From NCBI GenBank assembly GCA_905182125.1, contig CAJJAV010000010.1:68-64067 (forward strand): a stretch of 64,000 bases of DNA, written 5' to 3'. Within the stretch, counting starts at the first letter, position 1; the number at the start of each line of letters is the position of its first letter. Of this stretch, positions 4,378 to 31,888 are shown in pieces. Under the pieces are notes generated by a model. It was not told where the DNA came from, searched no databases, and saw only the letters and a list, made by a program, of their open reading frames with translations. The DNA comes from an uncultured Candidatus Poseidoniales archaeon. Lineage in GTDB: Archaea; Thermoplasmatota; Poseidoniia; Poseidoniales; Poseidoniaceae. The position numbers were made by a program, and so were the translations under genes.

Positions 4378-6741
4378 TTATTGCCCCTCCAAGTGAAGGG
4401 CGCGGCCACCGAGCGGTGCAAAAGCACGGCCGGATCCGTCGTAGAATTTGCCCATCCATTCCACAAAGTGGAGACGGGCTGCGTGAATTGTAGGTGAAAG
4501 AATGCCAAGCGCTAGAGCAAAGACTTGGACGAAGAGGAAGATTACCATGCACAGAAGAGCTGTCAAGTAACCCGCAGCGCCACCGGCCTCAATGCCAGCA
4601 ACCATGTTTTCCCATCCGAGGACAATGGAGACCTCAGCGATTTTGACACCAGCCACACCAACGGCCATGATGCGCAGGTATGAGAGGGTGTTTGCGAGAA
4701 GGCCGAAGGTTTCGATTGGCCCCATGATGATGCCGCCAGCCCATCCGAAGCCTTCGTACACTGCAAGACCGATGATGAGGCAAACAATGCCGCCGATGAG
4801 CAGGAGGTTCCACAAAGGCTGGAATTCGAACAGTTCATTGTGGCCCATCACGAAGTTTCGGCAGACCATGAAACCACCAGCGAGGATCATCAGCCACGAG
4901 CCCTTTTCGAAGAAAGCAGCAGAGAAGCCGTGCGCCTTGTTGACGTTCATGAAACCGATGATGAGGCCGACCAGAATGTGGAAGACGCCAAGGTAAACTG
5001 CGAGCGCAACATATTGCTCAAGACCGTGACCTGCGCTTGCTCGGTGGAACGGCATGAGGACGAATGGATGGCTGGCATCTCCGAGTCCAGTTAGGACCGC
5101 AATCGATTCTGGCAAGGTGAAGTGGTGTGACCAATCATAGAAAGAAATCAGCGGTGCGATGTGGGGGTGGCCCGCATGGCTGCCGTCCCAGACGAAGCCG
5201 AAGCCTTCTGCGAAAATGATGCCCCAAATGATGCACCAAACGCCCATCCAGCGAAGCACTGTCATGCCTTTTTGGGCCAACGGGTCAACTGCGAATGGTT
5301 TCGAGCCTAGCCAATATGAAAGACCAACAAGAATAGCGCCATAGCCCCAGTCTCCAAGAATCATCCCGTAGATGAACGGGAAGGTCATCATGATCAACAT
5401 CGAAGGTTCGAAGGAACCATACTTTGGACGGCCGACAAGGTCGACGAGCAATTCAAACGGTTGTGTAGCCTTGCCGTTTTGGAATTCAATTGGCGGTGTT
5501 GGCTCATCGTGATGGTCTGCCTTTGCAGGCATGGAACGAATCATGGTCAGGGTAATGTCGAGTTCTGGCAGGTTGATTTTACCATCGCCGTCCAAATCCA
5601 TGGCCTGGACCAGCTTACCAACTTCCCAAGGTGGAAGGTTAGCGATGCTCGCAGACTTGAGCGCTTGTTGGAATTCGTAACTGTCAACCATTCCTGAGTC
5701 ATCGAGGTCGATGGTCTTGAAAAATTGGAAGACAGAGAGTTTGTTCTTGAAAAGATAATCGGAGAGCATGGTCAACTCTTCAGCGTGCTCTTCGTTATGG
5801 GATTCATCGTTGTGGTGGCCGTGATGTGGATCAACATAGGCTTCGATGCTGACGTGAGAGGCGATGCTTCCAAGTTTATCCTGGACCATCTTGCTTTGTG
5901 CAGTCGGGACCCATCCGTCAAGAGCGAAGGCTTGTTCGCTGACTGCGACCAAGGTTGGCGCGGTGTAGATGGCATCTTCACGGGTCAGGAATTCTTCCAA
6001 AGCGACGACATTGCGTGCGTTTCGTTGAACCCATGCATCGAGGGCGTTCTGCGTGGAAACAATGGTGTTCTCAAGGGATGTGATTTCTGAAGCCAAGTCT
6101 TTGGCTTTCTTGGCAGGCGATCCTTCTCCGGCGGGGATTTGAATAGCTTTGGCGCCAAGTTCAGCCAAACATATCTGGACTTCAGCAGCGTGTTGAGTTT
6201 GGCACGCAACCGCCACGACGCCAGGGGCGCTGTGAAGGAGGATTTCCGTGCCAAGGGCTGCGAAAACGGTCTTTGCTTTGCTTGCACGTGCCGTTTCGCC
6301 AACATATACTTCCAAGCCGTCGAAACCGCCCATCAATTCCAGAGGGATGTCGAGGGGCGCGAGGCGCTCAAGGACCTGAAGTTGCTCAGCAAGAGTGCTG
6401 ATCGAGGATTCGCTGTCACGCACAGTGTCGATGTACGCAAGTGCGTCGTCAATTTTTGGACCAAAGTTCTCCATCAGTTTTTTTGCTTCTGCAATTGAAA
6501 GTGGGCCTTCGTTGTTGTTTGCCTTTACTGATGAGGTGACGGCTCGCACTTTGGTGAGCAATGCGCTGACTTGGTTGGCTCCTTCGTTGGAAAGTGCACG
6601 CCCAACGCCGATGCCGTCTTGGAATTGCCCGTACTCTTCGATGTGTACGCATGAAAGCGAAGCACACATCCTGAGCACCTCTTCCATCTTAACGACGGGA
6701 GCCGCCACGGTGAGGCGGGACATTTCTGCGGTGGCGAACAT
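4378..6741 (-). CDS. atpI: A/V-type ATP synthase subunit I (a) with an internal EF-hand pair
   Basis: 787 aa; FELLVDLVGRPKYGSFEPS, YGMILGDWGYG, LSYLRIMAVG (essential Arg) and RLHFVEWMGKFY motifs; insert carries DLDDSGMVDSYE and DLDGDGKINLPE. Confidence 0.95.
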   Translation of the reverse strand: MFATAEMSRLTVAAPVVKMEEVLRMCASLSCVHIEEYGQFQDGIGVGRALSNEGANQVSALLTKVRAVTSSVKANNNEGPLSIAEAKKLMENFGPKIDDALAYIDTVRDSESSISTLAEQLQVLERLAPLDIPLELMGGFDGLEVYVGETARASKAKTVFAALGTEILLHSAPGVVAVACQTQHAAEVQICLAELGAKAIQIPAGEGSPAKKAKDLASEITSLENTIVSTQNALDAWVQRNARNVVALEEFLTREDAIYTAPTLVAVSEQAFALDGWVPTAQSKMVQDKLGSIASHVSIEAYVDPHHGHHNDESHNEEHAEELTMLSDYLFKNKLSVFQFFKTIDLDDSGMVDSYEFQQALKSASIANLPPWEVGKLVQAMDLDGDGKINLPELDITLTMIRSMPAKADHHDEPTPPIEFQNGKATQPFELLVDLVGRPKYGSFEPSMLIMMTFPFIYGMILGDWGYGAILVGLSYWLGSKPFAVDPLAQKGMTVLRWMGVWCIIWGIIFAEGFGFVWDGSHAGHPHIAPLISFYDWSHHFTLPESIAVLTGLGDASHPFVLMPFHRASAGHGLEQYVALAVYLGVFHILVGLIIGFMNVNKAHGFSAAFFEKGSWLMILAGGFMVCRNFVMGHNELFEFQPLWNLLLIGGIVCLIIGLAVYEGFGWAGGIIMGPIETFGLLANTLSYLRIMAVGVAGVKIAEVSIVLGWENMVAGIEAGGAAGYLTALLCMVIFLFVQVFALALGILSPTIHAARLHFVEWMGKFYDGSGRAFAPLGGRALHLEGQ

Positions 6742-21181: not shown

Positions 21182-21733
21182 TTATTGAGCGGATGTTTTC
21201 TTTTCGTTGTAAAGGATAAAGATCCAAGCTGCAATCAGGAGTGTGGTGTTGGTAAACCAAAACCATGGAGTCGACCACCTGATTCCATCAAACATGAGAT
21301 CTGAAATCGGATGAAACACTGGGGTCGGGAAAAATTTGAGCGTGTGAGATGGTATATCTGTCAAGATATGAAAAAACCACGGTGTCCAAAGTATGAATGC
21401 TTGTTTTCCAGGCGTATATGTTGAAAGGAATAAATCCTGCATGAACTTAGGCGTTCCTTTTTTCTCTAAGTAAAGCCACGTTAAGAGGCAACAAATTGTA
21501 ACAATAATCAGGCTATGACTCCACTGGTAAATACCCCAGGAAAGCGGGTGGAAGTCTGCAGTGACAGTATTATCATTAATCTCTGGTTTCTGAAATCCAG
21601 TAAAGGCCCCCACAATCGATGCAGGAACAAATGCGACTAAGTCAGGCAACACTCCCATTGGCCCAGCGACTCTGGCTTTCACTTTCCCACGCGTAACGGC
21701 CATGCCCCATAGCCAGTGTGATAGAACATCCAT
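21182..21733 (-). CDS. Membrane-bound metal-dependent hydrolase (YdjM/DUF457-like)
   Basis: MDVLSHW, GVLPDL, WSHSL and HILTD motifs. Confidence 0.75.
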   Translation of the reverse strand: MDVLSHWLWGMAVTRGKVKARVAGPMGVLPDLVAFVPASIVGAFTGFQKPEINDNTVTADFHPLSWGIYQWSHSLIIVTICCLLTWLYLEKKGTPKFMQDLFLSTYTPGKQAFILWTPWFFHILTDIPSHTLKFFPTPVFHPISDLMFDGIRWSTPWFWFTNTTLLIAAWIFILYNEKKTSAQ

Positions 21734-21782: not shown

Positions 21783-24700
21783 TCAATACCCATACTTGCT
21801 GGCCATTTTCGTCACAGGTCGATCTTCCCCTGGTGGGCGGTCTCGATCCCTGCGCCTTTTCATTCGACGATCTAAGATAAACACCATGAGAATCATGAAA
21901 CTAAAGAGCACGAGGAAGAGTATTTTAAACGTATTTTGCGGTGTGATTTCAGTGGACGAGGAAGAGGATTCACCAAGAAGGCACGATGATTGACCGATCT
22001 TATCTTGATGCATCCCGAGTGGACACTCGGTCTGTTCCGACTGACCTTCAAGTTTGACATAATGATCGGAATCAGCCCACAAACAATCGCTCTCCAATGT
22101 CGAGCCTGAAATTGGATTGTAGGTGCCAACGCGGCAAAGTATTGTTTGATTCTGACCGGTTTCCAAAACATAAGAGCCGGGTTCAGCGTCGAGGCAATCA
22201 TCGATGGAACCCCTCCCTGGCATTGGATTGTACGTCCCAATAGGGCATGCGATTTCGATGGATTGGGCCGGGAGGTCAACGTAGTACCCCCGCGAAGCCA
22301 ATTCGCACGAAGTGGATGCATTTGCACCCGTTGTTGGATTGTAGCTCCCCAAAGGGCACGGTGTTTCATCTGCGCGCCCTTCTTCATCCACATAGTGCCC
22401 CAGCGAGGCGTTGAGACAGTCCTGTGAATTATTGGAGGCGGCATTTGAGTTGTATGTTCCTTTTTGACAGGGAGTTTGCAGTTCTTGACCCGTCATGTTG
22501 ACAAAATGACCAGGTGTGGCATCAACGCAATCAGAGGCATTGATTGAACCCATGTTCGGGTTGAACGTGCCAAGCCCACATTCACTTTGATTATATTGAC
22601 CTTTGAGGGGTACAAAATGGCCGCCCCAAGCAGGTGTGCATTCCGATTGGCCACTGGCGGGTTGGAATGTACCCCGGCTGCATTCGAGCTGAACCGATTG
22701 GGCAGTCTCATTCACGAAATGGCCAGGATCGGCATCGGTGCACAAGACTTGGCCGGTTTGGTTTACGAATGTTCCAAGGCTGCATTCGGTTTGATTCCAC
22801 TGTCCAAAGGCTTCAGCATGGTGGCCAATGTCTGTTGCTAAGCAATCATTTGGATCAGAAGAGCCGTTCAATGGATTGTAGGTGCCTGGATCACATGGGG
22901 TTTGATCACCTTGGCCTGTTTCATTCACGAAATGACCGCGAGTTGCTGGAAGGCACCACGTGGAGTTGTTTGCTCCACGAAGTGGATTGTATGTGCCCAC
23001 TGAGCACGGTACTTCGGTGGATTGACCAAGAAGCGAAACATAGGAACCGCGTGAAGCGTTGAGGCAGGAAGATTGCCCCGTCTGATTTTGCAAGGTACCG
23101 ATGGGGCATGCAGTTTGGTTGTACCTGCCCGTCTCATTGACGAAGTGACCGATGTCCGCTGGCTGGCAATCTGTTGAAAAGATTGAACCGTTGTCGGGGT
23201 TATAAGATCCTTCGAGGCATGCTGTTTGGTTCACTTGCCCCGTTTCATTGGCATAATGGCCCCATTCTGCTGGCCGGCAGTCGACTTGTTCAGTTTCGTT
23301 TTGGAAGGTCCCGATGGGGCATGGTATTTGCGAAGTTTGAGCGGTCATGTTGACGAAGTGACCCAAGTCAGAAGGAAGGCATGCTTGCGAACGGGTGCCA
23401 GGTTGGAAGGTCCCCACATCGCAAGGTAACTGTTCGCCTTGGCCGATGAGGTCGACGTAGTGGCCCGCTGTGGAATCAAAACAGGCGTTGATGCTTTCAC
23501 CACTTGTTGTTGGGTTGTAGGTGCCAACGGGGCACGGTCGTTCTCCGATTTGTCCAACTTTGTCAACATAATGGCCGATGGATGCATCAGTGGGATAGAT
23601 TGCATCATTCGCAGGCACGTACTTGCCAAGTCCCACCGTGGTGCATGCGTATCGACCATAGGTCGGTGCAACGCATTTCACCGTGCGCATGATGTCTTCA
23701 GGATAGGCGTCTAACGGATCGGCAACGCCGTCACCGTCTTGGTCCCCATTGTCAATGGCAAGGGAACGCGGAATCACAAGAGGAATGGTGTAGGTGAAAT
23801 TGACTTGGTTTGAAGTGTCGTTGTTTCCAATTTGACCGGCGGTACCCTTTCCAGTGCAAGCAACAGATTGGTTGTCATAGAGCACACACGTGCGGTATTT
23901 TCCAGCTGCCAATTCAACAACACTGCGCTCAGAAGCAACACTGCTAGCAGGGGTTGGATTGAATTGATCAGATGTCCCTCCGTTGCCAAGTTGGCCATCG
24001 GAGCCAACACCCCAACACGACGCTGAGCCATCGTCAAGGACGGCACATGTGTGATCAAATCCTAAAGAAATGGCAACTGCAGTTCTTCCGCTACCAAGGG
24101 TGCTCGTCAAGGTAGGCGTGTATTTGTCAGGCCTCACTCCATTCCCCAATCGGCCACCATTTCCGTACCCCCAACAAGAGACTTCGCCATTGTCGAGGAT
24201 TGCACAGGTATGCATGGCACCAGCAGAGATCGCTACTGCAGTCCGACCAACGCCAAGACTGCTGACTAATGTGGGTGTATTCTGATTTACCGAGGAGCCG
24301 TTACCCAGAACGCCGGAGATTCCTCTCCCCCAACAAGAGATTGAGCCATTATCAAGCAAAGCGCATGTATGCGATTCCTTCGTTGTAACATCAATCGCCG
24401 TTCGTCCCGCCCCAAGGCTACCGGTCAAAACTGGCGTGAAGCGCTTTTGAGTGGTTCCGTCGCCCAACTGCCCGTAGGTATTGTCACCCCAGCAGGCAAC
24501 TGAGCCGTTGTCAAGAACTGCGCAAGTATAACCGTGTCCCGCAGAAAGAGCGACTGCAGTACGGCCTGCTCCAAAGCTAGTGGTCAAGATTGGTGTATTC
24601 TGTTGTCCTGAATTGCCGTTGCCTAATGCCCCCTGCCATCCAGTGCCCCAACAAGAAACTGAACCGTTATCGAGAAGAGCGCAAGTGTGGTACCAGCCGA

Positions 24701-27332
24701 CAGAAATTGCTACAGCTGTGCGGCCTGAACCAAAACTGGATACGAAAACTGGAGCAATTTGATTTGTGGTGTTCCCGTTACCGAGTTGGCCTTCAGCCCC
24801 CCGACCCCAGCATGCAACTGAACCGTTGCCAAGCAAAGCGCACGAGTGATCGCCACCGGCTGAGATTGATGAAACTGAGGGCCCAAGCGTCTTTGTCAAG
24901 ACTGGTGAGGCTTGGTTTGCGATTTCCCCATTTCCGAGTTGACCGTTGAGGCCCGCGCCCCAACATGATATTTTTCCAGAATCAAGAACGACACACCCGT
25001 GGTATGAACCAACTGAGAGGGATGTTGCAAGCTTTCCATCACCAAAGGAAACTGTTGGCGTAGGCACGTACACTCGAGAAGAGCTCCCCGTTCCGAGACG
25101 CCCTGACCCACCCTCACCCCAACAGACAACTTCGCCACTGTCAAGCAGAGCGCAGATGTGGTGGTCGCCTGATGAAACTGAAACTGCAAGTTTCCCTGCA
25201 CCAAATCCACTGGTCAACCCTGGAGATGGACGCTTTGTACTTGTTCCATCCCCATTCTGGCCGTAGGCGCCTTCGCCCCAGCATGAAACATCCCCGACGT
25301 CGAGAAGGGCGCACGAATGGTGGCTGCCAACGGAAACTGAAATCGGGGTCGTGTTGGCAGGGAAAGCATTCACTTGAACCGGAGCGTTCCTTTGGCTTTC
25401 CGTCCCGTCGCCTAATTTTCCGTAATTATTTTTGCCCCAACACATCACGTTTCCATCATCGATTAATGCACAAGCATGATCAGTATAAAGGGACACTGAG
25501 AGGGCTTTTTTGCCCGCTCCAAAACTTGTGGTTGGCGTAGGGTCGGTTGAGGAAGTCGTGGCCCCGTTGCCAAGTTGGCCAGAAGTACCCTTGCCCCAGC
25601 ACGACACTGTTCCATCGCTCAATACCGCACACGTCACCGAGGATCCTGTTGAAATCTGAACCGCAGTTCTGTTGCTTCCAAATTCTCCAACCAGTGTAGG
25701 GCTTGTCAAATCGACCTTTGTGTTGTTAGTAAGGTATTGCTCACCCCAACAAGAAACCGATCCATTATCGAGCAGGGCGCACGTGTGCGTCCATCCTGCA
25801 TCAACGGCCTGTGCGGTTCTTCCTGCACCCAAAGAGAGGGTTGTTGCTGGTGTCAAGTGGTTTGTTTTGTCCCCGGTCCCAAGTTGCCCGTTTGTGTTGT
25901 CACCCCAACACGTGATCGAGTCGTCATCAAGAATGGCGCAGGTGTGCTTGTATCCCGCTGAAAGCCCGCTTGCCTTGAAGTCAAAGCGAATCGGAGTTTC
26001 AAAGATATTAAACACGCCATTTCCATTGAAATCCCGTTCCGAAACAGCGACTGATCTTAGCGCTGGCAGTATCGATAACGGGGTTGGCGAGGGTTGAGTT
26101 GAACCCGGAACACCAGGTGGTGAATCGCCCCAACAGGACACTGAAAAATCATCGAGAATTGCGCATGAGTATGTGTTGCCCGAAGTGATTGAAAGAGCGG
26201 TTCTGTTCACGCCGAGGCTGGATGTCAAGGTGGGAACCAATTGCGTATTTTCCACGCCGTCATTGCCGCCTCTTCCGTTCGCGCTCACGCCCCAACATGA
26301 AACATTACCATCGCTCAATACTGCGCAAGTGTGCTTGTGCTTTGCAGAGATCGCAACTGCCGTTCGCCCTTCTCCAAAGGGCTCGACGGCTTCTGGAGTG
26401 AGTTGGTCTGAAGTGGAACCGCTTCCCAAAAAGCCGTCAAGGCCACTGCCCCAACAAACAACAGACCCTTTGCTAAGCATTGCGCAAGTGTGGTCATCGC
26501 CCGAGGCAAGTGCAACTGGTTTGAACGCTGAAGGAATTGCTGCGATTGGTGCGGGTGAGGTTGATGAGGCAACACCGCCGTTGCCAAGTTGGCCCTTTGC
26601 CCCGTTGCCCCAGCACAGTGTGGAGCCGTTGTCAAGAATGGTGCAGGTATGGTAGAGGCCGCTTGAAATGGATTTAGCACTTCGATTCTCACCCAGGGAG
26701 TCTGTAAGTTGCGGCGAAGCGGAAGAAGAAGTGGCCCCGTTACCAAGTCGACCTTCAGACCCGGCACCCCAGCATGCAATAGCACCATCGTCAAGGATCG
26801 CACAGGTGTGCGAATGGCCTGCGGAAAGGGTGATCGCTTTTTGCCCCGATGGGAAGGGGAGCACAGGGGAAGGAACACTGCTGGTGCTTTGCAATGCACC
26901 GTTGCCAAGTTGTCCGTCTTCGCCTTCCCCCCAACATGAAACTGAACCGTTGTCAAGCAGAGCGCAGGTATGACGAGCTCCTGCAGTGATTGCTTTTGCA
27001 GTACGGCCGGGTCCAAAACTTGAGACATAGACAGGGGTTGATTGATCGGATGTGTCGTTGTTCCCTAACTGGCCGTCCGCTCCTTTACCCCAACAAGCCA
27101 CCGATGCGTTATCGAGGATGGTGCACATGTGTTCAGCGCCGATTGCAATTGTGGCTTGAGTGAAAATCGATCCTTCTTGGAATCCTGCCGCTTGGGCAGA
27201 GGATTGAGAAACCAAAACTGGGCTTTGTCCCGTCGCTTCTTGAAGGGGGGTGGCAAAGGTGTTGATGCCAGCAGAGCAACTCAGTGCAGCCATCAGGAAA
27301 ACCAAAAAATAGGCCTTCAGGGGTCTGCTCAT
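21783..27332 (-). CDS. Giant surface protein: 21 RCC1-like repeats, Ca-binding DxDxDG motif, 15 Cys-rich (GCC2/GCC3, ephrin-receptor-like) repeats, C-terminal TM
   Basis: Repeated GxxHxCAxLDxGxVxCWGxGxxGQLG; DQDGDGVADPLDAYPED; repeated CPxGTYN...C...GHFV..TGQ; signal peptide and C-terminal TM followed by RRMKRRR. Confidence 0.9.
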   Translation of the reverse strand: MSRPLKAYFLVFLMAALSCSAGINTFATPLQEATGQSPVLVSQSSAQAAGFQEGSIFTQATIAIGAEHMCTILDNASVACWGKGADGQLGNNDTSDQSTPVYVSSFGPGRTAKAITAGARHTCALLDNGSVSCWGEGEDGQLGNGALQSTSSVPSPVLPFPSGQKAITLSAGHSHTCAILDDGAIACWGAGSEGRLGNGATSSSASPQLTDSLGENRSAKSISSGLYHTCTILDNGSTLCWGNGAKGQLGNGGVASSTSPAPIAAIPSAFKPVALASGDDHTCAMLSKGSVVCWGSGLDGFLGSGSTSDQLTPEAVEPFGEGRTAVAISAKHKHTCAVLSDGNVSCWGVSANGRGGNDGVENTQLVPTLTSSLGVNRTALSITSGNTYSCAILDDFSVSCWGDSPPGVPGSTQPSPTPLSILPALRSVAVSERDFNGNGVFNIFETPIRFDFKASGLSAGYKHTCAILDDDSITCWGDNTNGQLGTGDKTNHLTPATTLSLGAGRTAQAVDAGWTHTCALLDNGSVSCWGEQYLTNNTKVDLTSPTLVGEFGSNRTAVQISTGSSVTCAVLSDGTVSCWGKGTSGQLGNGATTSSTDPTPTTSFGAGKKALSVSLYTDHACALIDDGNVMCWGKNNYGKLGDGTESQRNAPVQVNAFPANTTPISVSVGSHHSCALLDVGDVSCWGEGAYGQNGDGTSTKRPSPGLTSGFGAGKLAVSVSSGDHHICALLDSGEVVCWGEGGSGRLGTGSSSRVYVPTPTVSFGDGKLATSLSVGSYHGCVVLDSGKISCWGAGLNGQLGNGEIANQASPVLTKTLGPSVSSISAGGDHSCALLGNGSVACWGRGAEGQLGNGNTTNQIAPVFVSSFGSGRTAVAISVGWYHTCALLDNGSVSCWGTGWQGALGNGNSGQQNTPILTTSFGAGRTAVALSAGHGYTCAVLDNGSVACWGDNTYGQLGDGTTQKRFTPVLTGSLGAGRTAIDVTTKESHTCALLDNGSISCWGRGISGVLGNGSSVNQNTPTLVSSLGVGRTAVAISAGAMHTCAILDNGEVSCWGYGNGGRLGNGVRPDKYTPTLTSTLGSGRTAVAISLGFDHTCAVLDDGSASCWGVGSDGQLGNGGTSDQFNPTPASSVASERSVVELAAGKYRTCVLYDNQSVACTGKGTAGQIGNNDTSNQVNFTYTIPLVIPRSLAIDNGDQDGDGVADPLDAYPEDIMRTVKCVAPTYGRYACTTVGLGKYVPANDAIYPTDASIGHYVDKVGQIGERPCPVGTYNPTTSGESINACFDSTAGHYVDLIGQGEQLPCDVGTFQPGTRSQACLPSDLGHFVNMTAQTSQIPCPIGTFQNETEQVDCRPAEWGHYANETGQVNQTACLEGSYNPDNGSIFSTDCQPADIGHFVNETGRYNQTACPIGTLQNQTGQSSCLNASRGSYVSLLGQSTEVPCSVGTYNPLRGANNSTWCLPATRGHFVNETGQGDQTPCDPGTYNPLNGSSDPNDCLATDIGHHAEAFGQWNQTECSLGTFVNQTGQVLCTDADPGHFVNETAQSVQLECSRGTFQPASGQSECTPAWGGHFVPLKGQYNQSECGLGTFNPNMGSINASDCVDATPGHFVNMTGQELQTPCQKGTYNSNAASNNSQDCLNASLGHYVDEEGRADETPCPLGSYNPTTGANASTSCELASRGYYVDLPAQSIEIACPIGTYNPMPGRGSIDDCLDAEPGSYVLETGQNQTILCRVGTYNPISGSTLESDCLWADSDHYVKLEGQSEQTECPLGMHQDKIGQSSCLLGESSSSSTEITPQNTFKILFLVLFSFMILMVFILDRRMKRRRDRDRPPGEDRPVTKMASKYGY

Positions 27333-27410
27333 ACCGGAACCAAACAAGGGGGGGATTTCAACTCTCTTCTTTTCAAGAGGAACTGGCCTTCAAAGGAAAG
27401 CAGGTGATTC

Positions 27411-28673
27411 TCAATTCGAATCCGAAGCAGAGTCAGTGAGTTCATCCAAATCAGGGGCACTCGGCAATTCAGTCCCAGTTGCCGATTGGGAACCTTCTCT
27501 TTCAAGACGCTCATTGAGTTCATTGATTAATTCATTCGAAACTTCAGGGGTTTCCGATGGCGCACTAGGTTCCAGTACATCTTCTGGGATCTCACCACGC
27601 TCAAGGGCTGCGAGGCGGTCTTCGAGGGCCTGCTTGCGACGGCGGCGCTCTGCCATACTCGGCACCTCAAAGGTCGCCACGAGCATGATTGGATCGCCGT
27701 GAGTGAGTGCTGCCTTGTACTCCATCACATCAACAACGCCATCGTTGTCTTCATCGTGAAGTGAATTGATGATCACTTGGAACTTCGTAGGATCTCGAGA
27801 CCGTCGCTTCTTGTGCTTCTTGTAATGGTGCACATAGACTTGATACTTGCCTGCGGGAGCTGTGCCTTCTGGCCAGTAGACGTTTTCCACAGGCTTTTTG
27901 CTTTCTGGGCGAACGTTAGCGTCGACGTCGAGTTCTCCACCGCACTTTGAGATTTTATTCCCTCCGTGTATCCGTTCGCCTGAAGGGCATACGATGTGCA
28001 AATCCAAGTCGTTAAAGTTGTTCCACATCAAGGACACTTGAACGTCAGAAGATCGAGCCCCTTCACGGCTTAGACGTTCCTGAAGATCTTTCATAGCGGC
28101 CTGTGCCGCTTGCTTTGATTGTATATCGTCGGCTTGACGAGCTGATTCGATTTCTGCGATTCGAGCTGTTTCTGCTTCATCCAGTTCGTTTTGACGCACG
28201 GTTTCAAGTTCAGCCAATTGAGCTGAGCGGGCTTCAGCAAGTCGAGCTTCTTCCCTGTCGCGTCGTCGCTGCTCTGCTTCATCTTCGGCCTGTTGAGACG
28301 CTGCGTTCGCTTCGGCTTGGGCTTCTGCGATGGCCGCCAAGCGGAGTCGTTCTGCATCGCGCACACGATTTGCTTCGTCCTTGGCCGTTCGCTCTGCAGC
28401 CTGATTGCGAACGTTGCGTTCTGCATCGAGTTGAGCGACGCGACCACGTGCTAAATCACGGGCACGGCGGCGTTCTTCGACAATAGCCAGTTTAGCGTTG
28501 ATCTGTTGTTTGGCGCTGCCAAATCCTGGCCCACCTGTGTTGTAGCGCAAACCTTCTGGACCGATGCCCTGGCGCATGTTTAGTTTCGTATCGCCACGGG
28601 CAACAATGTACCACAAACCGATACCAAAACCGCCACCAAGGGCGGCTAACATACCCATCGACTGCGCATCCAT
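27411..28673 (-). CDS. Membrane-anchored coiled-coil protein with YfaP/DUF2135-like domain
   Basis: N-terminal TM, long Ala/Glu/Arg coiled coil, DVQVSLMWNNFNDLDLHIVCPSGERI..GGELDVDAN..VENVYWP..APAGKYQVYVHHY. Confidence 0.75.
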   Translation of the reverse strand: MDAQSMGMLAALGGGFGIGLWYIVARGDTKLNMRQGIGPEGLRYNTGGPGFGSAKQQINAKLAIVEERRRARDLARGRVAQLDAERNVRNQAAERTAKDEANRVRDAERLRLAAIAEAQAEANAASQQAEDEAEQRRRDREEARLAEARSAQLAELETVRQNELDEAETARIAEIESARQADDIQSKQAAQAAMKDLQERLSREGARSSDVQVSLMWNNFNDLDLHIVCPSGERIHGGNKISKCGGELDVDANVRPESKKPVENVYWPEGTAPAGKYQVYVHHYKKHKKRRSRDPTKFQVIINSLHDEDNDGVVDVMEYKAALTHGDPIMLVATFEVPSMAERRRRKQALEDRLAALERGEIPEDVLEPSAPSETPEVSNELINELNERLEREGSQSATGTELPSAPDLDELTDSASDSN

Positions 28674-28727: not shown

Positions 28728-31178
28728 TTAGGAAGACAAATCCTTGACTTTTTCGACCAAATCCATTCGCCGAAGTCGCCAAATTCCGAACGGTGTCATA
28801 GCCACAGCGATGAGAATGACACCCGTCATGAGTTGCCAAGCAACACTTGGAACGATCGTGACCGGCACGAAGAACTGCCAAGAAGAGAATGAAGCTGCTA
28901 ATCCGACCGCTCCTCCGTATGCAAACAAAACTCCGACGATACCGCCAATGAGACCGATCAGCAGGCTTTCAAACAGAAGCATCAGACCTAGGCTGCGGGT
29001 CGAGGCTCCAAGCACTCGTAAAGTAGCCAATTCGAAATCACGCTCCGCTACGTTCATGATCATCGTATTGAACATCACAACAATGGTGAACAGGAGGCCG
29101 AGGTACATCATGGTCTGGAAAATTTGGGTCTGCTGGTCCAGTAAACTGTTGATGCCATCGAGCAAGGTTTGCCGCTTGACGACCCCTGTCGAAACTTCAC
29201 CTAAAGCTGAGTCGACCTCTACACCTTCTGGAAATTCCAAATAAATCGAAGTTGCATTGACACCAAGAATCTCGCTCAGATCCCCGCGAAGGAAATACAT
29301 GGTTCGGGCGAGTTCCGCGGTTGCGGTTCCAACAATTTCGACATCGTGTGGTGCGCCATTGATGTGAACTGTTTGTTGTTCTCCAACATTCCATTCGAGG
29401 AAGCGCATGCTCCCTTCTTCCATTACAACTTGAGTGACTGCCATATTCCCAGAAGGAGCCTTGCCATCCAAAAGGGATACTGCGCGCATACCGCTTTCGA
29501 ATGAATCAATGCCAACAAGAGTGAATGTTCGCTCGATATCATCAGCATCAGCAACTGAGCCAAGAGGCATTTCAATGAGCATTTCATAATTGGCAGAATT
29601 GTTCTCCGCCCAATCAAAGACGGGTTGCTCCCCATCTGGCATGATGTAGACTTGCGCATCCCAAGATTGGTCGTTCTCCAAACCGCCTACCATCGTCTCT
29701 TCCAATCCTGCTGACATCATTTGAATCGAACCAAACAGCATCAGAGAAATACCGACTGCGATAAATGTCATCGTAAGTCGGATCGGTTTGCGAACGCTTG
29801 AACGAATCGAAAGGCCAAGCGTTGTAGGCATCCATGAAGTGAGTTTTCGAAGGAGGTTTGAGCCGACGCGCATTTCATTTTGCCCACTCAGCACCTCAAG
29901 CGGGTCGAGTCGACTCGCTTTCCATGCAGGGAATGCTCCGGAAAGGAACACGACACACATGGTAGAGCCGATGACGGTAAGATAGATTGATGACGGAATT
30001 GTACGCACAATGATTGGCATACCAACGAGGTCTTGATAGAAATCAAGCATTCCATTCATGCCCCATGGCCCTGCTAAGGCACCAAGCGCACAGCCAATTC
30101 CACCGATGACAAGAGGCGCAACAAGATAGCCGGTCATGAGCGATGAGCGCTTGACGCCCAGCGTCCGTAATACAGCAATTTCCTTCGCTTGACTTTGCAC
30201 CAAACGCTGCAAACTCAAGACGATCGTGATGGACGCGATTGAGGCAATCATCACGGTAAAGGGAACAGTTGTTCGCTTGGTCCCTTCCAAATCTTGTCGC
30301 ATGACTTCGACCGGTTCATTCTGTCCTCGGTCTCGAACGCGTGCATCCAATTCGGTGGCAGAAAGTGAAGCATCAACAATCCCTTTCAGCACATCAATTT
30401 CTTCACCTTCATACTCAGGCGTATCAGGTAAATCATAGGACGGTGTTCCTTCAACATCCAAAACAATTGTGTTACTTGTTCCAACAGCATGACCTGTCAG
30501 TCGAGCCATTCCAGTATCGGAAAGGTAACCGACCACATACTGGCCTGATTCAGGCGGGAACAACGTACCTTCAGGAGCCATCATCACATGCAAGGGGTGA
30601 TACCCTGTCCCAACAACCGTGAAAGAAGCACTCGTGTTTCCTGCACTAATATTCACCGTATCTCCAAGCTCGATTTCGAGAGCTTCAGTGACGTGAGCAT
30701 CGATCACAATTTCATCAGCAGCAGCCGCTGTTCGACCTATGGAATGCCCTTCAGGCATCCATACGCGGTCAGCATTTGCATCACCAGGAATACCATGCCA
30801 GAAAGAGTTGATGAGGTGCCCCCCAGTGCCATTGGTGTGGAACATTGTACCTTGGGTAACGGTGCGTCCTTCACATGAATCAAGAGAGAAGAGGGCGGCA
30901 GGGTTTGAGCCAAATTCTGATGCTAATGAATCGCAGAAAGCATCCACTTGGCCCGGGCTCCAAGTTGCACTGCGGTTGTCAATCCAAAGATCTGCAAGAT
31001 TTGCACCCCCATCGTCATCGGCTTGCATGGTCTCATACATGCCCCCAAGATTGTGTGCGTAACCGCCAAAAGTGATTCCGGCAAAGACGCCGACGAACAC
31101 CATCAAAACAACGGCTACGAGCCGGAGTTTTGTACGCCAAAGGCTTCGTGCCAAGCGCTTATTCAGGAGGGTCGACAT
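28728..31178 (-). CDS. FtsX/MacB-family ABC transporter permease (two permease modules)
   Basis: QRLVQSQAKEIAVLRTLG and MNVAERDFELATLRVLGAS repeats; GGAGG RBS before ATG 31178. Confidence 0.9.
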   Translation of the reverse strand: MSTLLNKRLARSLWRTKLRLVAVVLMVFVGVFAGITFGGYAHNLGGMYETMQADDDGGANLADLWIDNRSATWSPGQVDAFCDSLASEFGSNPAALFSLDSCEGRTVTQGTMFHTNGTGGHLINSFWHGIPGDANADRVWMPEGHSIGRTAAAADEIVIDAHVTEALEIELGDTVNISAGNTSASFTVVGTGYHPLHVMMAPEGTLFPPESGQYVVGYLSDTGMARLTGHAVGTSNTIVLDVEGTPSYDLPDTPEYEGEEIDVLKGIVDASLSATELDARVRDRGQNEPVEVMRQDLEGTKRTTVPFTVMIASIASITIVLSLQRLVQSQAKEIAVLRTLGVKRSSLMTGYLVAPLVIGGIGCALGALAGPWGMNGMLDFYQDLVGMPIIVRTIPSSIYLTVIGSTMCVVFLSGAFPAWKASRLDPLEVLSGQNEMRVGSNLLRKLTSWMPTTLGLSIRSSVRKPIRLTMTFIAVGISLMLFGSIQMMSAGLEETMVGGLENDQSWDAQVYIMPDGEQPVFDWAENNSANYEMLIEMPLGSVADADDIERTFTLVGIDSFESGMRAVSLLDGKAPSGNMAVTQVVMEEGSMRFLEWNVGEQQTVHINGAPHDVEIVGTATAELARTMYFLRGDLSEILGVNATSIYLEFPEGVEVDSALGEVSTGVVKRQTLLDGINSLLDQQTQIFQTMMYLGLLFTIVVMFNTMIMNVAERDFELATLRVLGASTRSLGLMLLFESLLIGLIGGIVGVLFAYGGAVGLAASFSSWQFFVPVTIVPSVAWQLMTGVILIAVAMTPFGIWRLRRMDLVEKVKDLSS

Positions 31179-31192
31179 CCAATAGCCTCCAA

Positions 31193-31888
31193 TCAAGCAT
31201 CTTCATCGGAGCTGTCGACTTTTTGATCGGAGATGATTTTTCCACTGTCAATACGAATGACACGGGTTGCATACTTGACCAAGCCTTCATCATGCGTGAC
31301 AAAAACTGCAGTGATGTTCTCTTGCTCGCAAGCGTGAACTAAAGCCTCCATGACTTTGTTTGAAGTTTCAGTATCGAGGTTCCCTGTCAATTCATCCCCA
31401 AGCAGAAGAGTTGGGCGCTTTGCGATGCTTCGGGCAATGGCGACACGTTGTTGTTGACCACCACTAATTTCACCAGGAAAACGGTTGATTTCTGCTTCAA
31501 GCCCAACAAGTTTGAGCAATTCTTTGGCTCGCACTGGGTCTTTTTTGCCAGCCAATTCTTGAATTAAGTGAATGTTCTCGAGGACAGTGAGGTCTTGCAG
31601 GAGGTTGAAGAACTGGAACACATAACCAATGTTCTCTCTTCTGAAGGACGTCATTTTCTCTGAATGGCTCCGAGGTACTTCCGTGCCTTGGAACATGTAC
31701 ATCCCATTCGTTGGGCTATCAAGCGCTGAAAGGCAATTGAGCAGGGTCGTTTTTCCGGAACCAGAGGGGCCAAGCAGGATGACGCGTTCACCTTCTTGGA
31801 TTTCGAGGTTGATCCCATCAAGCGCTTTGACGGTACCAGCCGGTGTTTGGTAATGCCTTTGCAGGTCGTTCATTTGTAGCAATGACAT
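31193..31888 (-). CDS. ABC transporter ATP-binding protein (LolD/MacB type)
   Basis: GPSGSGKTT, ISGGQQQRVAIAR, DELTGNLD, VTHD. Confidence 0.95.
   Translation of the reverse strand: MSLLQMNDLQRHYQTPAGTVKALDGINLEIQEGERVILLGPSGSGKTTLLNCLSALDSPTNGMYMFQGTEVPRSHSEKMTSFRRENIGYVFQFFNLLQDLTVLENIHLIQELAGKKDPVRAKELLKLVGLEAEINRFPGEISGGQQQRVAIARSIAKRPTLLLGDELTGNLDTETSNKVMEALVHACEQENITAVFVTHDEGLVKYATRVIRIDSGKIISDQKVDSSDEDA

Follow-up and report, generated by a model that had tools for sequence, protein, structure and literature searches.

In the present study, we analyzed a 64,000-nucleotide (nt) stretch (the window) from the genome of an uncultured Candidatus Poseidoniales archaeon (contig CAJJAV010000010.1) and focused on one minus-strand gene, which encodes a large surface protein (P0001). 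We found that the Cys-rich stalk of this protein is a variant of the Ephrin_rec_like repeat, in which cysteines have been lost in pairs, so that every second rung of the canonical disulfide ladder would be missing. We consider it likely that this stalk is a rigid, fixed-length, and glycan-coated spacer that presents three RCC1 propellers. The orthologs of P0001 are located in metagenome-assembled genomes of Candidatus Poseidoniaceae / Poseidoniales (Marine Group IIa). Marine Group II archaea are uncultured and rank among the most abundant surface-ocean microbes. To our knowledge, their cell surface is essentially uncharacterized, as are their virus receptors and the way in which they attach to particles or algae.

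The Cys-rich region covers amino acids (aa) 1225-1791 (23675..21975 of the window). The spacing of its cysteines alternates strictly between 20 residues and 14 or 17 residues. The region can thus be divided into 15 two-Cys units, which are 34 or 37 aa long except that the final one is truncated. The first-pass annotation, which was made from the letters alone, had counted 15 tandem units of about 33-38 aa. Both this count and the unit motif that it proposed agree with the translation, where the motif reads C-P-x-G-T-[YF]-[NQ]...C-x-x-[AS]-x-x-G-H-[FY]-V-x-x-x-G-Q-x-x-Q-x-x-C. Each unit can be divided into an A half-unit ([QE]-x-x-C-P-x-G-T-[YF]-[NQ]) and a B half-unit (C-x-x-[AS]-x-x-G-H-[FY]-V-x-x-x-G-Q). 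The mean identity between units of the P0001 stalk is only 41% (range 27-56%), and Tandem Repeats Finder detected no DNA-level tandem repeat in the stalk. Thus, the array is old, and a recent repeat expansion or an assembly artefact was rejected on the Tandem Repeats Finder result. Among ten orthologs (65-94% stalk identity), stalk length is fixed at 522 aa, and every stalk contains 30 Cys and 20-26 N-x-S/T sequons. Across the whole family, the number of half-units per stalk ranges from 9 to 50. In addition, two orthologs are mosaics when compared with P0001: P0003 shares 94% identity in the stalk and 82% in the head, and P0006 shares 94% in the head and 70% in the stalk. These opposite mosaic identities suggest that head and stalk alleles may be recombining within the genus.

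The first-pass annotation had assigned the repeats to the GCC2/GCC3 type. Our hidden Markov model (HMM) search supported this assignment: PF07699 (Ephrin_rec_like, formerly GCC2_GCC3) matched P0001 in 6 stretches with 94.9 bits (gathering cut-off 23.1 bits, E = 2.4e-27), and profile and fold matches to the mastigoneme protein Mst1 pointed to the same family. The family motif C-x-x-C-x-x-G-x-[YF] with both Cys does not occur in the P0001 stalk, which has zero CxxC, and each half-unit retains one of the two CxxC cysteines. The stalk is a sub-variant within PF07699 and not an outsider. It should be noted that PF07699 detects the two-Cys form poorly. The model covers only 6 of the 15 units of P0001, and a six-frame search of the archaeon's own genome recovered single units at 24.9 and 20.6 bits. 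Similarly, P0140 of the eukaryote Carpediemonas membranifera, with 24 half-unit junctions, scored 22.1 bits, which is under the cut-off. None of 14 control genomes matched PF07699.

For profile searches and AlphaFold2, we used an alignment of 41 six-unit stalk segments (A1). The only protein in the PDB matched by the A1 profile was Mst1 of Chlamydomonas (E = 3.5e-32). In the HMMER alignment of the two, the archaeal "a" and "q" lie beneath Cys of the Mst1 motifs C-T-A-C and C-K-P-C. The AlphaFold2 model of aa 1303-1527 (mean pLDDT 95, pTM 0.77) consists of two-residue strands chained into small beta-hairpins round each x-x-G turn. When this model was compared with the PDB using Foldseek, the top matches were again Mst1 (9b4h, 8wa2, and 8tx1; E from 6.6e-13 to 8.5e-9, TMq 0.55-0.79), followed by ELAPOR1 (9vqm) and the tumor necrosis factor receptors (TNFR) 4-1BB and CD40 (E about 1e-3 to 1e-2, TMq 0.2-0.25). 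The rod of stacked small beta-hairpins seen in solved PF07699 members was found by AlphaFold2 and Foldseek together. In our reading, the P0001 stalk is a rod made of 30 half-units stacked on one another, each a beta-hairpin of the Ephrin_rec_like / growth-factor-receptor Cys-rich fold.

A canonical half-unit has the form C1-x-x-C2-x-x-G-x-[YF], and a junction is defined here as C2 of one half-unit (i) and C1 of the next (i+1). We scored every consecutive half-unit pair in 119 archaeal-type homologs. Cys was present at both positions in 2067 junctions and at neither in 1918, and 2 junctions were discordant (3985 concordant). For P0001, the corresponding numbers were 13, 13, and 0. The lost junction was replaced by A...Q in 66% of cases among the 119 proteins, with C2 changed to Ala/Ser in the B half and C1 changed to Gln/Glu in the A half. 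Furthermore, an HMM-anchored alignment was examined for columns in which Cys is found in more than 50% of the full-ladder eukaryotes but not in archaea, and these proved to be precisely the A and Q columns of the archaeal consensus. The cysteines are thus lost pairwise, and CxxC to CxxA in one half is always coupled to CxxC to QxxC in the next. The replacement of the second Cys by Ala or Ser, leaving two Cys per unit, had been seen in the first-pass annotation. This observation holds, but it is only half of the change, and the coupled replacement of C1 by Gln/Glu had been missed.

In the canonical fold, C2 of a half-unit would bond C1 of the next, giving a continuous disulfide ladder. Because the two positions are Cys in both or in neither partner, and because the lost columns correspond to Cys columns of full-ladder proteins and Mst1, the simplest reading is a ladder bond between C2(i) and C1(i+1), with both partners of every second rung replaced together. 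In the P0001 rod, alternate rungs would be non-covalent Ala(Ser)...Gln(Glu) pairs. We infer that 15 disulfides remain, one per unit, each joining the A Cys to the B Cys and thereby closing a loop of 14 or 17 residues. Alternatively, a metal might be bound by the paired Cys and the conserved His in G-H-[FY]-V, or the Cys might stay reduced, with no disulfides in either case. Each unit does offer two Cys and one well-conserved His, but three ligands per unit make no standard structural metal site, and the His is not invariant in the family, where the consensus is G-x-Y-V at several positions. Moreover, the strict coupling of the lost positions fits disulfide partners, the same positions align with Cys of the Mst1 domain reported to hold 26 disulfides, and the protein is exposed to oxic surface seawater. 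We regard a metal-binding or reduced stalk as extremely improbable.

As the first-pass annotation had stated, the stalk contains more than 20 sequons. We counted 23 N-x-S/T sequons in aa 1272-1789, compared with 6.15 +/- 2.2 expected, and none of 5000 composition-preserving shuffles reached 23. The propeller part has 19 sequons against 12.4 expected, and it shows no excess like that of the stalk. The sequon density of P0001 is 4.44 per 100 aa in aa 1272-1789 and 4.72 in aa 1269-1755. In the ortholog group (P0002-P0017 without the more distant P0008 and P0016), it is 4.7-5.3 per 100 aa. In ten orthologs, 92% of the P0001 stalk sequons are kept as sequons, and the Asn of sequons are conserved at 92% versus 76% for non-sequon Asn. 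Two sites recur along the stalk, V-N-E-T following G-H-F-V and N-Q-T immediately ahead of the A-half Cys. Sequons this dense are specific to the P0001 ortholog clade, in which they are also conserved.

The archaeon's own genome encodes an STT3/AglB homolog with the WWDYG motif on contig C24 (54.6 bits, above the Pfam cut-off). Thus, both features looked for in an AglB substrate are present: the sequons are carried by an extracytoplasmic domain, and the genome has an AglB. It is plausible that the stalk is heavily N-glycosylated, and that this is under selection in the P0001 ortholog clade; the genome's AglB would be the enzyme responsible. The STT3/AglB homolog is the sole match in the genome. 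It lies in a 3162-aa open reading frame (ORF) (locus L016, 99-9587, minus strand), in which an N-terminal multi-transmembrane STT3 part carrying WWDYG is followed by a sequon-rich extracellular stretch of about 2000 aa and, at the C-terminus, by a transmembrane helix. AglB proteins are usually about 600-1000 aa long, far below the length of this ORF.

The order of the protein is signal peptide, RCC1 propellers, Asp-rich linker, Cys-rich stalk, Ser-rich linker, transmembrane helix, and tail. Therefore, the stalk sits between the membrane and the propellers, in keeping with the first-pass annotation, which had proposed a stalk that projects the propellers. Seven-blade RCC1 repeats in the head are above the Pfam threshold (PF25390, 5 stretches, 760.9 bits, E = 3e-229; PF00415, 18 stretches, 455.8 bits, E = 8e-140). 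The 21 C[WT]G blades that we counted would be enough for three seven-bladed propellers. In the proposed arrangement, the protein would be a type I surface glycoprotein whose stalk, a rod next to the membrane, holds the three RCC1 propellers, presumed to be the binding head, off the cell surface. The closest solved structure offers a scale for this rod. The Cys-rich domain of Mst1 (678 aa, 26 disulfides) forms one rod of 26 nm (PMC11015965), and the rungs of its ladder are about 11 Å apart (PMC10602792). With about 1 nm rise for each of 30 rung positions, as in Mst1, the P0001 rod would be about 30 nm long, and scaling by residues gives about 22 nm. By this analogy, a rod length of about 20-30 nm is probable. 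Other heads, such as subtilisin, are found on related stalks, and the repeat number varies; both points fit a generic display device.

Two other functions were weighed against that of a spacer. First, the Cys-rich repeats could be the ligand-binding part of a receptor that signals across the membrane, as in TNF or Eph receptors. The model resembles 4-1BB, CD40, and ELAPOR1, with which the stalk shares the general class of disulfide-laddered hairpin modules, but these matches are weak, and the matched domains are short and ligand-binding and have another module grammar. The cytoplasmic tail of P0001 is basic, 29 aa long, and domain-free; a stalk that ranges from 9 to 50 half-units is typical of spacers; and the faster-evolving part is the stalk in some orthologs and the head in others. 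A receptor function of the repeats is therefore very unlikely in our opinion. Second, the rod could be an assembly module, in which antiparallel or side-by-side pairing gives dimers, fibres, or a surface canopy and the glycans modulate packing. The Cys-rich domain of Mst1 is used for an antiparallel homodimer interface (>7,400 Å2) and for filament contacts (PMC11015965), the fold match to Mst1 is strong, and the exact 522-aa length in orthologs would also suit a lattice. However, with the transmembrane helix right after the rod, all rods must stand parallel with their bases at the membrane, whereas the Mst1 dimer is antiparallel, and about 23 N-glycans along the rod would hinder tight rod-rod packing. 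In addition, the varied heads on related rods (RCC1 and subtilisin in the Pfam lists of P0048, P0080, and P0029) suit a generic spacer. We consider assembly unlikely as the role of the rod.

Several points weigh against the glycan-coated spacer that we favor. In Mst1, the Cys-rich domain is a dimerisation and filament interface and not a passive spacer (PMC11015965). The family-wide sequon density has a median of 1.3 per 100 aa, and dense glycosylation as a property of the whole family was rejected for this reason. Since dense sequons are not a family trait, glycosylation would be dispensable for the fold. Furthermore, in the window's own genus, 9 genomes have the gene and at least 20 do not, including near-complete ones and assemblies of 1-6 contigs. 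The gene is absent from many high-quality genomes of the same genus and is therefore not essential; it looks flexible in Marine Group IIa.

Compared with Mst1 (8tx1, 8wa2, and 9b4h; PMC10602792, PMC11015965), P0001 has in common a long extracellular rod of stacked hairpins of the Ephrin_rec_like type, and the N-glycosylated Mst1 rod resembles the sequon-rich P0001 stalk. Unlike P0001, Mst1 forms filaments by polymerisation and has mostly CxxC half-units and N-terminal Ig-like domains. The archaeal rod lacks CxxC, has half as many rungs, and bears RCC1 heads, and it ends in a transmembrane anchor where Mst1 has a hydroxyproline polyproline II tail. Full-ladder PF07699 proteins of protists and animals, such as those of Triparma, Naegleria gruberi, and Mnemiopsis leidyi, share the C-x-x-G-x-[YF] motif and the G-Q-x-x-C spacing with P0001. 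However, all rungs are kept in Naegleria and Mnemiopsis, and nearly all are kept in Triparma, where most proteins have lost none and no protein has lost more than 3. The same architecture is found in Poseidoniales proteins known only from database entries, in which RCC1 (or subtilisin) is combined with Ephrin_rec_like and the stalk is of the same two-Cys type. The P0001 ortholog group differs from other Poseidoniales stalks in having three propellers, exactly 15 units, and a conserved sequon density 3-4 times higher.

The first-pass annotation had called the two-Cys stalk an archaeal variant, and this part of it did not hold. Among the 120 homologs listed, 118, all archaeal-type, have at most one CxxC (109 with none and 9 with one, counted over the whole protein). 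The two exceptions are P0099 of Carpediemonas membranifera and P0040, which lies on a 388-kb contig; in both, two-Cys units with G-H-F-V...G-Q..Q are mixed with canonical ones. The named eukaryotic homologs came from a second search seeded with P0099. In this search, Carpediemonas P0140 had 12 rungs kept and 12 lost, and P0157 had 11 kept and 11 lost, the lost ones being mostly A...Q. In several Carpediemonas proteins, the alternation is no less strict than in the archaeal stalks. The same form is partly present in Aureococcus, in which about one rung in three is lost. The Carpediemonas FG-GAP / "mastigoneme-like" proteins (P0099, P0123, P0127-P0129, P0140, and P0157) share with P0001 the alternating two-Cys units, the A...Q pairs, the G-H-F-V...G-Q..Q motif, and a propeller head on a stalk. 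They resemble the stalks of archaeal P0008, P0018, and P0019 (33-37%) no less than their own paralogs. The genes are eukaryotic and lie on contigs of 142 kb to 1.9 Mb. The Carpediemonas proteins differ from P0001 in that the head is an FG-GAP_2 propeller according to Pfam and not RCC1, and in that some of them mix in canonical CxxC half-units. The RCC1 label of P0123 was not supported by Pfam. A propeller on a half-stapled rod thus appears to be a design of Carpediemonas as well.

Trees were built from six-unit segments after the lost-rung (Cys/Ala/Gln) columns had been removed; the segments are not strictly orthologous, and the trees are hence weak evidence. In the FastTree result, all archaeal rows, most Carpediemonas rows, and P0040 fell in one weakly supported cluster. 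A placement of Carpediemonas inside the archaeal group, as drawn by FastTree, was not upheld by approximately unbiased (AU) tests in IQ-TREE. On the IQ-TREE tree, the two-Cys state needs only 2 changes. A single clade of all 76 two-Cys segments was not rejected (p-AU 0.61, lost-rung columns removed), nor was a clade of the 58 archaeal rows apart from all named eukaryotes (p-AU 0.81). Therefore, we make no claim on the direction of transfer. These data permit a single origin with exchange between the domains but do not demonstrate it. The base composition of the gene gave no sign of recent transfer, its guanine-plus-cytosine content (0.52-0.53) being equal to that of its surroundings. A tentative scenario, with a real chance of being correct though we would not call it probable, is that the A...Q two-Cys form arose once and then passed between the domains, most simply from a eukaryote to the ancestor of Marine Group II, so that Poseidoniales and marine protists (Carpediemonas and, in part, Aureococcus) would have one surface-stalk module in common, and that the stalk later became a fixed-length, densely glycan-shielded spike in the window's clade.

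The species distribution of the two-Cys stalk was surveyed with the A1 profile. Across the class, 69 of 201 genomes and 13 of 25 genera matched, and in the sister family of the order, the matching genomes were usually multi-copy. Across the phylum, there were matches in 24 of 301 genomes, 23 of them Poseidoniales and the remaining one weak. In the archaeon's own assembly (1.85 Mb, 31 contigs, 82% complete), all five matches fall in the P0001 gene. The two-Cys stalk is common in Poseidoniales and near-absent elsewhere in Thermoplasmatota. By the first-pass annotation, a variant already common and described in prokaryotes would have counted against its reading; the variant is common there, as the count for the class indicates, and we found no paper that describes it, nor any literature description of the domain in archaea or Marine Group II. 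The phylogenomics paper on Poseidoniales treats adhesion only via flagella, thrombospondin, and flotillin. In a library of 1.84 billion representatives, the A1 profile matched 16,686 proteins at E <= 1e-3; the number fell to 6,917 at E <= 1e-10 and to 1,684 at E <= 1e-30. Of 117 new top matches, 36 were of the alternating type, all shorter than 3000 aa, and 20 of these 36 carried RCC1-like blades; giants of 3000-8000 aa among the new top matches were not of the alternating type. In five proteins (P0202, P0238, P0264, P0276, and P0282), the lost rung is Ala...Ala or Ala...Pro and RCC1 blades are absent. These five form a further sub-variant of the alternating stalk.

The half-stapled rod is a tidy structural variant of a known fold that is already common in the databases, and it is no new kind of system. 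Nevertheless, rods of this kind with propeller or protease heads may be among the main large surface proteins of Marine Group II, and we found no paper that describes them. The alternate-rung rule would be a rod grammar that can be read from the sequence, C2(i)-C1(i+1) being either kept or replaced by Ala...Gln. This rule could be useful for annotation because PF07699 only half-sees the variant and a dedicated model would improve annotation, and it could also help in designing rigid spacers with fewer disulfides. In addition, the sequon load, which is conserved and confined to this clade, points to a spike that is likely to be heavily glycosylated in one lineage of Marine Group IIa. Finally, because archaea and protists have exactly the same variant, the exchange of genes between planktonic archaea and eukaryotes could be studied on a concrete example.

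The coordinates of the gene, its parts, and its neighbors are listed in Table 1.

Table 1. Positions in the window of the P0001 gene, its protein segments, and the co-directional neighboring genes.
Feature	Position	Strand	Basis or remark
ABC ATPase	31193-31888	minus	
FtsX permease	28728-31196	minus	
420-aa protein with transmembrane helix and coiled coil, upstream neighbor	27411-28673	minus	
Whole gene, type I membrane surface protein (P0001)	21783..27347	minus	1854-aa ORF from TTG
Putative signal peptide (MSRPLKAYFLVFLMAALSCSAG...)	27261..27332	minus	read off the translation, no predictor
Head, 21 RCC1 blades (C[WT]G motifs)	23808..27170	minus	Pfam and motif count
Asp-rich linker IDNGDQDGDGVADPLDAYPED, last propeller to stalk	23694..23756	minus	translation
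Degenerate N-terminal stalk cap: C1225, C1235, one Cys-less B-type half-unit	23544..23675	minus	
15 two-Cys Ephrin_rec_like-type units (30 half-units), 23 sequons	21975..23543	minus	
AlphaFold2-modelled segment, aa 1303-1527, units 2-7	22767..23441	minus	mean pLDDT 95
Ser-rich flexible linker (GESSSSSTEITPQNT)	21930..21974	minus	translation
Putative transmembrane helix FKILFLVLFSFMILMVFIL	21873..21929	minus	hydrophobicity, no predictor
Basic cytoplasmic tail (DRRMKRRRDRDR...), 29 aa	21786..21872	minus	translation and Pfam
183-aa membrane protein	21182-21733	minus	

Translation probably starts at the ATG at 27332 and yields 1849 aa, because P0002, a database protein 99% identical to P0001, has this length. 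No NCBIfam model matched P0001, and Pfam recognized no domain in the cytoplasmic tail. The head and linker contain two Asp/Gly-rich motifs, DFNGNG between propellers 1 and 2 (26016-26033, minus strand) and DNGDQDGDGVADPLD before the stalk (23694-23756, minus strand). Both look like putative calcium-binding motifs, and neither was matched by Pfam.

The gene is the fourth in a co-directional minus-strand row with gaps of 50-64 nt. A scan for promoters and terminators found nothing above shuffles with bacterial models, which are not applicable to archaea. In the 420-aa upstream neighbor, an N-terminal transmembrane helix and a long coiled coil rich in Ala, Glu, and Arg precede a C-terminal domain. 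This domain contains the motif VSLMWNNFNDLDLHIVCPSGE..., which resembles DUF2135/YfaP-type domains; the protein had no Pfam match at E <= 1e-3. The window also encodes PurP and subunit I of an A-type ATPase, in keeping with an archaeal genome, and this subunit (4378-6741, minus strand) bears an EF-hand pair (Pfam EF-hand_7, E = 5e-8).

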